From a virus: 64,000 nucleotides of DNA. Shown piece after piece: positions 57,433-60,443 of the stretch. Each line of letters opens with the position of its first letter. Positions within the stretch are counted from its first letter, which is position 1. The position numbers were made by a program, and so were the translations under genes. The DNA lies in the IMG/VR virus record IMGVR_UViG_3300033153_009093, positions 64,001-128,000 of that record. One strand, given 5' to 3'. The notes below the pieces were generated by a model. It did not search any database, was not told the origin of the DNA, and saw nothing but the letters and a program-made list of their open reading frames with translations.

Positions 57433-57954
57433 TTATAGCGTATCAGGAGAAAGCATATTATCAATATCATCAATATCCTCACCTGATGATAAGTCCATTT
57501 TTATTCTATCATTATCTAATTTTTGTAATTTTAATAAATTATTGGTTATATCATTTAAAATTGTTCTTCGGTCTGATATAACTTGTCTAATTAAATCTAA
57601 CATCTTTACAATATTTTCTTCATTAGTCATTTCATTATGACTATCAATATATTTTTTAAATAATAGTTTTTGATACTTATATTCCTTAATAGCCAATTTA
57701 AGCATTAGAATTATTGATCTGAATGTTATATTTTTAGACATTGAATCAGTGAGACTTGTTATATTATCTATATCAGAAATTACATCATCTGCATAAATAT
57801 TTAATTCATCATTCTCTTTTAATAAATCAAAAAAGAGTTTAACGCTAGATGTATTATTATAACTGTTACTGTTAACATTTTGTTCGGGCCTTAAATTTTG
57901 AATATTATTTTTTATATTTTCAAAATTCGTTAGTGGTATATTTTTTTGTTCCAT
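57433..57954 (-). CDS. Hypothetical helical protein, 173 aa
   Basis: Track ORF; AGGT upstream. Confidence 0.6.
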   Translation of the reverse strand: MEQKNIPLTNFENIKNNIQNLRPEQNVNSNSYNNTSSVKLFFDLLKENDELNIYADDVISDIDNITSLTDSMSKNITFRSIILMLKLAIKEYKYQKLLFKKYIDSHNEMTNEENIVKMLDLIRQVISDRRTILNDITNNLLKLQKLDNDRIKMDLSSGEDIDDIDNMLSPDTL

Positions 57955-58023
57955 GTTTATTTACCTATAATAAAATTATATATAATTAATTTCATAATCT
58001 AATACATAAAAAGGATTATTATA

Positions 58024-58518
58024 ATGCTTCGGATACCTAATATATTTATAGAAAATATTACCCATATATCAGCTAAACCTTTCTTTGATATAAAATTTGA
58101 TTCCATAAAAGGAGTTAATATAAATAATGATTTTTTAGACATCATTTTTTACAGGTCATTAATAGGAAAAGTATCTTCTAAAAAAAATGGAATCAAAATA
58201 AGATACTTTGATGAAAATAATAATATATTACATAATTCTAATATTTCAAAATTTAAAAAAACTATTTATGAAAACAAAAAAATAGTATCAAATAAAAATA
58301 GTATCAAAATTAAAAAAAGTAATAATTGTAAATACCTAACTCGATTAGAAATTATTTTTACATATAATAGTATAGACACTATTATATTTGATACTAAAAT
58401 TCCACAGAATACAATATTTTCTGAAAACACTAATGGAACTATTAAAAGTGGCATAGCTATTCCTTTAAATGAAACTAATATTGAATTGTATAATAAATTT
58501 CAAATAATATATAAATAA
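58024..58518 (+). CDS. Hypothetical protein, 164 aa, directly upstream of the dead TnpB-like gene
   Basis: AAGGA RBS; TAA ends one base before ATG 58520. Confidence 0.65.
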   Translation: MLRIPNIFIENITHISAKPFFDIKFDSIKGVNINNDFLDIIFYRSLIGKVSSKKNGIKIRYFDENNNILHNSNISKFKKTIYENKKIVSNKNSIKIKKSNNCKYLTRLEIIFTYNSIDTIIFDTKIPQNTIFSENTNGTIKSGIAIPLNETNIELYNKFQIIYK

Positions 58519-58519
58519 T

Positions 58520-59851
58520 ATGAAAAAGTGTATAAAAAATTATTCTATAAACATATCATCATCTAATTATAATAAATTAACCAATTATTTATTATACTAT
58601 AATAAGTGTAAAAATTTATTTTATAATAAATATTAGAATGATATCGGTACAATATATTTACCATATAAATATGAACTACGAGATACATTAGTTTCAAATA
58701 TAAAAAATAATGATTTGAATATTAATGAATTGGATTTATTAAAAAGCGTTCCCGCTAAATTATAGAAAAACGCATTAACTGAATCTATAACTAATTTAAA
58801 ATCTAATTAGTCTAATACAAAAAATAGAATTAGACAAAAAATAAAAAAGAACAAAAATTTTTCTGAAAAAGATACTCATTATTTATATTATGTACTTAAA
58901 TCAAATAACATATTACATAATATAAATAATGGAGATTTGAATATAACCTTAGAAAAATTTGATGTAAATTATAAAAAACTTAATTCATATTTATATCGAC
59001 AAATAAAAAAAGAAAAAAGAAAACCTTATTCTAAAAGTAATAGTTATATTATAGATAGTAGCTCGCAAATATTATACAAACAAATAGATAATAATTTAAT
59101 TTGTTTCCTATCAACATTAAAAAAACGAGAAAGGATTTTAATCCGTTTATCAAATAGTATAAAATATAAAGGCGATATTCGTATAGTATTAAAAAATAAT
59201 AAAATGGAACTACATAAAGTTATTAATATTAAACCTCAATTAAATAACAACAATTCTATTACTGGAATTTATATTGATTTTAATAATTTATTCACAACCC
59301 AAAATAATATTTATGGTAAAAATTTCGATAAACTATTAAAAAAATTTGCACATATTATTCACTGTAAATCAAATAAAAGGGAAATCCTTAAATCAATGAA
59401 TAATATACTAATACAAAAAAATAACTTAGGTACAAAAAAATAGCACAGTAAAAAAAGAAAATTTATTAATGAATTAAATTCCTTTATAAATTTGAATTTG
59501 AATTTATTAATTAAAGAAGAGCGGCCTAAAACTATTATTATAAAAAAAATAAATAAATATTTATTATATAATAATAGAGATAATTTATTTAATATTCCAA
59601 ACCATCATTTATAGATCTTAAATAATTATATAATAAATTACATTTATAAACGATTAGAATACAAAACACAATTAAATCAAATTAATATAATATTAGATAG
59701 TTCAAATTATACAATCAAAGTATGTAATAATTGTAAAAGTAGAAATACTATTATTACAAAAGGGTACTTTAAATGTAATAATTGCATGGTTAGTATAACT
59801 AAAACATCTAATACAATAAACAATATGATTGAGCATCACGGTGTTAATTAA
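58520..59851 (+). CDS. TnpB-like protein with degenerate RuvC active site, 443 aa
   Basis: VPAKL*KNALTESITNLKSN*SNTKNRI, NNLGTKK, KRLEYK, CNNC...CNNC Zn ribbon. RuvC positions read GIYIDF, IIIKKI and ITKTSN, with no acidic catalytic residues. 5 TAG; ends TAA. Confidence 0.8.
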
Positions 59852-59961
59852 TGTTGTTTACCTAACTGGTTTTTGGAAAATGTATATTTATATACATTAC
59901 TGGTTTAACCTAACTTCACGGAAAGAGAAATTTAAATTCAGTTAATAGTAAATTCCCTTAT

Positions 59962-59992
59962 ACCGGAGAAGATTTTCTTCTCCGGTTTTTTT
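59962..59992 (+). terminator. Intrinsic terminator, probably bidirectional
   Basis: ACCGGAGAAGA-TTT-TCTTCTCCGGT 11-bp stem followed by a T-run, between convergent genes. Confidence 0.85.
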
Positions 59993-60443
59993 ATAGATAC
60001 TTTTCAATTTTTTTATTAGTACTTTCATGTAAAATCATATCACTTTTATTTTTATTAAAATATGATTTTGGTGTGCCTTCAAATTTTCTCGACATTCCCC
60101 TCTAATCGGCAATCATTTGAAGTATGTATTTTTTTGGCATTTCAATAGGAATTATTTCATTTTTCCTTGTTACAGATACCTAGTAATTCTAATGATGTTT
60201 ATTTCTTTTTTGATGTTTATTCTACCCTTGTTGAAATAATTTATCGTTTCCATCAGATTTACAATAATTATTTAAGCTATCTTTCTTTTCAAAAAAGATA
60301 GCAGATGGTATAAATTCGGATGGTAAAAATTTTGATAAGTCATGAGTAATTGCATGATAATATAGTCCCATGTTGATACATTCTATTCCTACATTCTTTT
60401 TATGCTCAATAATATATTTAAAATATTTCTAATATTTATTCAT
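59991..60443 (-). CDS. DUF5662-like (HD-type) protein, 150 aa (absent from the ORF track)
   Basis: MNKY*KYFKYIIEHK, AITHDLSKFLPSEF, QQG*NKHQKRNKHH*NY*V, IPIEMPKKYILQMIAD*RGMS. TAG at 60429, 60222, 60189, 60180 and 60102; no TGG. Confidence 0.85.

Follow-up and report, generated by a model that had tools for sequence, protein, structure and literature searches.

A new clade of TldR-like, predicted nuclease-dead TnpB derivatives in large, probably lytic phages

Background

Nucleases of transposons have repeatedly been turned into RNA-guided transcription factors, the TldRs. To our knowledge, all characterised cases are bacterial or prophage-borne.

[quoted passage not shown] Clades associated with fliC_P, oppF and csrA have been distinguished (Wiegand et al., 10.1101/2023.11.30.569447; Xiao et al., 10.64898/2026.09.22.753285). 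Their guides are 9–16 nt long and lie next to the scaffold, those of the oppF type measuring 9–11 nt (10.1101/2023.11.30.569447; 10.64898/2026.09.22.753285).

Here we describe a TnpB-derived gene in a 64,000-nt window (the whole stretch of DNA analysed) that comprises positions 64001–128000 of a virus record; the record is complete at 180,374 bp, bears inverted terminal repeats and has a G+C content of 24%. Like the TldRs, its product has a mutated RuvC DED motif and is fixed beside non-transposon genes without TnpA or other transposon context. A structured RNA lies at the 3′ end of the gene in both, and one known TldR clade is likewise phage-borne. Unlike the described TldRs, the window protein belongs to a clade of its own, sister to intact metagenomic TnpBs, and is encoded within a replication and recombination module of phages of 180–276 kb, whereas the phage-borne TldR case concerns temperate prophages and a position next to fliC. 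Further differences are that all three catalytic residues are lost and the zinc ribbon is kept, that the RNA ends in an intrinsic terminator 3–16 nt past the scaffold, that the gene appears to be written with TAG for tryptophan, and that no match between guide and target was found in four genomes.

Two other systems are close by structure. ISDra2 TnpB with its omegaRNA (PDB 8H1J, 8EXA) is the best structural match, and its RNA also overlaps the 3′ end of the ORF, but sequence identity is 13%, the D/E/D triad of ISDra2 TnpB corresponds to Y/K/T here, and the window gene is single-copy and syntenic, with neither transposon ends nor TnpA. Cas12f (AsCas12f, 7WJU/8J12; OsCas12f, 9NZS) supplies the top profile and Foldseek matches and has a similar size and domain order, and dCas12f (9N9C; PMC13472631) is a naturally dead member that still uses guides. 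In contrast to Cas12f, the window locus has no CRISPR array, tracrRNA or adjoining sigma factor, and the nearest NCBIfam model of the family is guided_TnpB. A limited literature search found no report of the dead clade described below, nor of large lytic phages in which a dead TnpB is fixed. Our analysis identifies a new clade of TldR-like TnpB derivatives, predicted to be nuclease-dead, in large, probably lytic phages.

Results and discussion

A TnpB fold without the RuvC triad

Standard family models barely recognise the window protein. Pfam Cas12f1-like_TNB (PF07282) gave a weak match under the family cut-off (E 5e-5), PHROGs returned nothing above chance (best E 0.23) and NCBIfam gave no match. 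An exhaustive search collected 213 relatives, the nearest intact ones, which form the sister clade, matching the NCBIfam guided_TnpB model over their full length (~E 1e-27). A profile of 82 family members reaches Cas12f/TnpB structures down to E 1e-20. The AF2 model of the protein (pLDDT 94.6, pTM 0.85) was matched by Foldseek to Cas12f/TnpB with probability 1.0, the best matches being Cas12f, TnpB, CasLambda and Fanzor; VIA-align placed ISDra2 TnpB (8H1J) first, with Z 18.5 and 333 residues aligned across 1–443, followed by Cas12f with Z 17 or more. TnpB homology, which a first-pass annotation had proposed and for which it had suggested a Foldseek comparison with TnpB/Cas12f, is thus borne out by the family profile, by Foldseek and by VIA-align. 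A WED-REC-RuvC-TNB architecture and a CCCC zinc ribbon place the protein in the TnpB/Cas12f superfamily.

We assigned the catalytic triad in an alignment of 105 full-length family proteins, in which the consensus RuvC motifs are GIDKG, xxxEDL and DADxNAA. The corresponding motifs of the window protein are GIYID, IIIKKI and TKTSNT, so that D/E/D is replaced by Y251/K342/T429 (Table 1). In the model these positions lie at the end of strand 246–251, at the end of strand 336–342 and at the start of helix 428–442. An alignment of four sequences had suggested D253 as a retained catalytic Asp, but the 105-sequence alignment overturned this assignment, and since the closest relatives have G or N there we reject it. 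The zinc-ribbon cysteines C402, C405, C419 and C422 are all present and are nearly invariant in the family. Replacement of all three acidic positions and an intact zinc ribbon had both been read from the sequence at first pass; the former holds in the 105-sequence alignment and in a repeat alignment, and the latter stands as well.

The intact RuvC D-E-D of an active TnpB is therefore absent, and three of three positions are mutated against the two or more required in the TldR definition of Wiegand et al. These replacements support the view that the protein is a domesticated TnpB derivative whose nuclease activity is predicted, from the triad, to be lost. Because the three cutting residues are gone and a conserved folded RNA is kept (see below), the protein most likely binds DNA and does not cut it.

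The window protein falls in a clade of seven proteins (support 1.0), all of which lack the whole triad (Y or S / K or Q / T, A or I) and keep the CCCC motif. This dead clade groups with a sister clade of intact D-E-D proteins, also with support 1.0, and the intact sister TnpBs are known from metagenomes only. Elsewhere in the same family there is a second, independent triad-replaced clade (A or S / P / K or R), which includes P0041, P0045 and about 20 others, and large clades have a change at the third Asp alone, to G, H or N.

Table 1. Positions of features at the TnpB-like locus, in window coordinates
Feature	Position	Strand	Remarks
Conserved upstream neighbour, 164 aa	58024..58518	+	mostly beta-strand predicted (pLDDT 70)
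TnpB-derived ORF	58520..59851	+	443 aa, 5 in-frame TAG, no TGG
Y251 codon	59270-59272	+	first RuvC position (GIY for GID)
K342 codon	59543-59545	+	second RuvC position (IIIKK for xxxED)
T429 codon	59804-59806	+	third RuvC position (TKTSN for DADxN)
Conserved nested RNA hairpin, 123 nt	59691..59813	+	candidate guide-RNA scaffold; over zinc-ribbon codons
Outer helix of nested hairpin	59691-59699/59805-59813	+	
Middle helix of nested hairpin	59707-59716/59788-59798	+	
Inner hairpin of nested hairpin	59773-59777/59783-59787	+	
CCCC zinc ribbon coding region (TNB domain)	59723..59785	+	C402...C422; Pfam PF07282
Phage-specific stretch	59852..59899	+	first ACCTAACTGGTTT copy and 8-bp AT hairpin (59880-59899); not conserved
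Hairpin P1 (CUGG...UCAG)	59900..59941	+	loop with conserved AACCUAACUU and AAAGAGAAAU blocks; arms covary
UUAAU	59942..59946	+	directly after P1; part of GTTAAT invariant in five loci
15-nt linker AGUAAAUUCCCUUAU	59947..59961	+	place where a TnpB-type guide would begin
Intrinsic terminator	59962..59993	+	11-bp stem, 6 G-C pairs, then T run

A single-copy gene at a conserved place in phage genomes

Loci were sought by protein, by the RecA-like neighbour and by DNA pattern in IMG/VR, metagenome and genome collections, which gave five in all: the window and the loci L001, L002, L005 and L006. Phage and plasmid collections yielded only distant TnpBs and no close relative. L001 (276 kb) and L002 (233 kb) are both complete phage genomes, and L005 is a 30-kb metagenome contig. 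L006 is a 21.8-kb contig (JAOZRH010000017.1) binned into a Candidatus Neomarinimicrobiota MAG; the contig shows phage gene order and in-frame TAGs and is probably phage DNA binned together with that of a bacterium. The lineage that carries the gene consists of large AT-rich phages that are probably lytic (virulent). Frames of 433–473 codons are intact in four of the genomes, at 36–47% identity to the window protein.

All five loci share a local order of a RecA-like region, a small minus-strand gene, a plus-strand gene of ~170 aa, the TnpB-like gene and a convergent gene of ~335 aa. The TnpB-like gene is single-copy in each of the three complete genomes. No Y1 TnpA adjoins it or occurs elsewhere in the 180-kb genome, and the marks of an IS200/IS605 or IS607 context (TnpA, transposon ends, multiple copies) are lacking. 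Single copy, synteny and the lack of TnpA together argue that the gene is domesticated and is not a live, decaying or recently dead insertion sequence, in agreement with the first-pass annotation, which had noted the missing tnpA next to the gene and called the protein domesticated. In the window, a DUF5662 gene with five TAGs (59991–60443, minus strand) separates the terminator from the 334-aa gene; the other four loci have no DUF5662 gene at this place. The conserved 3′ RNA element remains beside the TnpB-like gene.

The neighbourhood also suggests a different role. The protein might be an RNA-guided recruiter and not a repressor, activating transcription as dCas12f-sigmaE does or bringing factors for recombination or replication to a site on DNA. 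The gene lies between RecA-like, primase, Mre11-like and RNR genes (DUF5662 and unknown proteins are also encoded nearby), transcription-activating dead Cas12f homologues have been published (PMC13472631), and an upstream partner ORF of 164–184 aa is conserved in five of five loci. This ORF, however, belongs to no Pfam or PHROG family and has no PDB fold match, so to speak for a partnership it offers no informative fold, and neither a sigma factor nor a recombinase was found adjoining the TnpB-like gene. In the window phage the stop codon of the upstream neighbour abuts the TnpB-like start (TAA-T-ATG), whereas in the other four of the five loci the two are set apart by a terminator and a TTGAATTAATT motif, the TnpB-like gene being bracketed by its own upstream terminator, the TTGAATTAATT motif and a ribosome-binding site. 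We consider the recruiter role distinctly improbable. A scan for sigma-70-type promoters gave results at chance level, and TGAATTAAT was rejected as a genome-wide promoter or operator since it is not enriched (7 found vs 18.7 expected).

TAG is best read as tryptophan

The 443-aa ORF with five in-frame TAGs is present as first annotated (Table 1). The TAGs are at codons 39, 82, 97, 308 and 365, and the standard code leaves open no more than a 168-codon piece. Two of them fall on tryptophan columns of the family, codon 97 on one that is Trp in 92 of 102 sequences and codon 82 on one that is Trp in 58 of 102. With a family HMM built without TAG-using members, the window protein scores 301.4 bits when TAG is read as W vs 285.1 bits when it is read as Q, and W ranks first of the 20 residues substituted at TAG. 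In L006, the TAG at codon 419 is aligned with the Trp of the 'TPW' tail in L002, which supports the same reading in the phage group. As judged from these alignments, TAG in this phage is best read as Trp and not as Gln; the Gln reading is disfavoured by the family columns and by 16 bits in the HMM. A gene of this kind is split under the standard code or mistranslated if TAG is taken as Gln, and such proteins are therefore under-counted in databases.

The virus record holds a single tRNA, with anticodon CUA. TnpB-like genes at the relatives' loci have 4–7 TAGs each, and in the window phage the RecA-like, primase and RNR neighbours of the gene have no in-frame TAG. Because all Trp codons of the TnpB-like gene are TAG and those neighbours have none, its translation should depend on the phage TAG-reading tRNA, and the protein should be made only once this tRNA is active. 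The idea that expression is gated by TAG thus survives in part: dependence on a TAG-reading tRNA is expected for a gene with five TAG and no TGG codons, but the residue inserted is Trp and not Gln.

A conserved RNA structure at the 3′ end of the gene

We used RNAalifold on a codon alignment of four genes, in windows of 150 nt, and found values of ~0 kcal/mol nearly throughout, with at most −2.2 near the 5′ end. The sole consensus fold along the gene is at its 3′ end (−8.5 kcal/mol), where a 123-nt nested hairpin of three helices overlies the zinc-ribbon codons (Table 1). On an independent MAFFT alignment, 92.7% of cells of its 24 pairs are paired, vs 79.9% after shuffling and 19–44% with slid partners, and 0 of 500 shuffles reach any of the pairing measures. 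Compensatory changes on both sides occur in 11 of the 24 pairs, a covariation count that is based on only 4–5 sequences and on a structure derived from the same alignment. Third-codon-position identity shows no excess at the 3′ end of the ORF, and no Rfam family matches the 3′ RNA.

A covariance model built from the nested hairpin finds a second copy in an intergenic region of L006 (E 2e-11). This copy, at L006:6303-6560, was left by a tandem duplication of ~225 nt as a non-coding second version of the gene's 3′ end. It lacks 36 nt of zinc-ribbon coding sequence between helices and 21 nt of tail coding sequence, and all three helices are kept, with changes from G-U to A-U, U-G to C-G and U-A to C-G that improve pairing. 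Adding this copy raises the compensatory pairs to 12 of 24, with four different Watson-Crick types at one of the pairs. No extra scaffold copies were found in the genome of the window phage (G000).

Downstream of the ORF stop, ~110 nt of DNA are non-coding, and this DNA holds duplicated ACCTAACT and ACTGGTTT. The first-pass annotation had singled out an 8-bp hairpin and these duplicated motifs as signs of a guide RNA. They are present, but the stretch that contains them is missing from relatives; AT hairpin and motifs are thus phage-specific and not the conserved RNA features. ACCTAACTGGTTT directly follows the ORF stop, and an exact 13-nt copy of it stands isolated outside the window, at G000 174828-174840 (−), with a chance expectation of ~0.004 for such a fairly G+C-rich word.

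Conservation resumes at hairpin P1. Its arms occupy homologous positions and read CUGG/UCAG, CUUGGU/ACCAAG, CUAUUUUUUU/AAAAAAAUAG, CCAGU/ACUGG and CCGGU/ACUGG in the five loci, for which anchored-stem shuffle tests gave p = 0.44, 0.04, 0.007, 0.19 and 0.10 (combined ~0.004). A 36-nt block at 59922–59957 is 83% identical to L001, vs ~66% in flanking genes. The UUAAU that follows P1 may close the scaffold by pairing with AUUAAU (59679–59684), which immediately precedes the large hairpin on its 5′ side; the minimum-energy fold of L002 contains this helix. GTTAAT lies 3–16 nt before the terminator, whose stem sequence differs among loci, and occurs upstream of only 2 of the 36 predicted terminators of the genome, so it is not a generic terminator feature. 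The terminator itself, reported at first pass as a strong one after the non-coding stretch, is there, at 59962–59986, and is the sole strong one within 57900–60100. An 11-nt complementarity between the 3′ element and ORF codons 86–89 was discarded, as the other loci do not share it.

A guide RNA at the 3′ end had been proposed for about 59750–59965. A conserved RNA does occupy this canonical place, but it begins ~160 nt further upstream than the non-coding DNA, within the ORF.

The relative at L005:4001-5143 is truncated to 380 aa, with the zinc ribbon and the large RNA hairpin deleted, and L005 still has hairpin P1, UUAAU and the terminator. Having lost both zinc ribbon and large hairpin, L005 implies either that the RNA is dispensable or that this copy is decaying; the truncation may parallel the C-terminal loss described for some TldRs, or may be decay. 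That the whole gene is a functionless, decaying relic of an old IS insertion, with the RNA covariation a by-product of shared ancestry in AT-rich sequence, would agree with the truncated copy, with the small number of sequences (4–5) on which the RNA rests and with the ease with which spurious helices arise in AT-rich DNA. Such a relic would not be expected to keep frames of full length in four genomes at so low an identity, a confident predicted fold (pLDDT 94.6), a consensus energy confined to the 3′ end against ~0 in the other 150-nt windows, or up to four different Watson-Crick types per pair, and we regard this explanation as highly improbable.

Guide candidates and the probable mode of action

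If the protein uses a guide in the manner of TnpB, the guide would begin after UUAAU. The linker at this place is similar in L001 and L005 and is only 3 nt long in L002 and L006; since the terminator stem starts 3 nt after UUAAU in the latter two, their guide would be short or would overlap the stem. The first-pass annotation had suggested searching for matches to the 3′ end of the RNA, and in none of four genomes were there any beyond chance: guide candidates from the stretch after UUAAU have no such match in the phage genome G000, in either of its two completely sequenced relatives or in the MAG to which L006 belongs, a search in which guides of 9–11 nt are too short to be sought blindly. 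Self-targeting by the 3′ stretch was considered and rejected, as a 14/16 match at G000 1652 (vs 0.68 expected) and an 11-mer at G000 71910 are both at chance level.

These results bear on whether the RNA is a guide at all. It might instead be a structural or autoregulatory partner only, for example with the protein acting on the 3′ end of its own mRNA in stability or translation, or DNA might be bound through the TAM-reading surface alone. Several observations would fit: the conserved RNA is part of the protein's own mRNA, located inside and at the end of it; past the scaffold the sequence is conserved and not variable, and in L002 and L006 it runs straight into the terminator; and the target search was negative. 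On the other hand, the non-coding copy in L006 is an RNA kept though uncoupled from the ORF, and a trans-acting RNA fits this copy better than a cis element of the mRNA does. Moreover, guide use persists in every dead TnpB or Cas12f relative characterised so far. We therefore hold a role without a guide to be possible but rather unlikely.

The explanation we favour, with modest confidence, is a TldR-like complex in which the dead TnpB and a scaffold RNA bind DNA without cutting it, at a target that is probably in the host. The gene, fixed as a single copy beside recombination and replication genes of large AT-rich phages in which TAG is apparently a sense codon, would form a transcription unit of its own. 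The transcript's 3′ end, ~59680–59990, would provide the scaffold, made up of the nested hairpin, P1 and UUAAU and followed by the intrinsic terminator. The protein would bind this scaffold RNA as TnpB binds omegaRNA, and would appear only after the TAG-reading tRNA of the phage has become active. The complex would then bind DNA and leave it uncut, most likely blocking transcription where a site complements the short stretch after UUAAU, and, as none was found in the phage, the target site is probably in the host. Of the RNA-guided repressor originally proposed, the dead, domesticated TnpB and the conserved 3′ RNA have been retained, but no target was found in four genomes.

A broader picture can be offered only tentatively, and we would sooner doubt than accept it as a whole. 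Large, probably virulent phages might carry, as a conserved component of their genomes, an RNA-guided DNA binder that is translated late because every Trp codon is TAG, that has a short, fixed guide next to or partly within the terminator, and that acts on a conserved host target in late reprogramming of the host.

Conclusions

The clade would extend the TldR idea to large phages, where the gene occupies the same place in every genome of the lineage that was found. The compact 443-aa protein and its defined RNA of ~300 nt make a testable pair. Should the broader picture above prove true, a TldR-type regulator would be known for the first time outside temperate phages and bacteria, and its RNA would represent a new layout of scaffold, guide and terminator.
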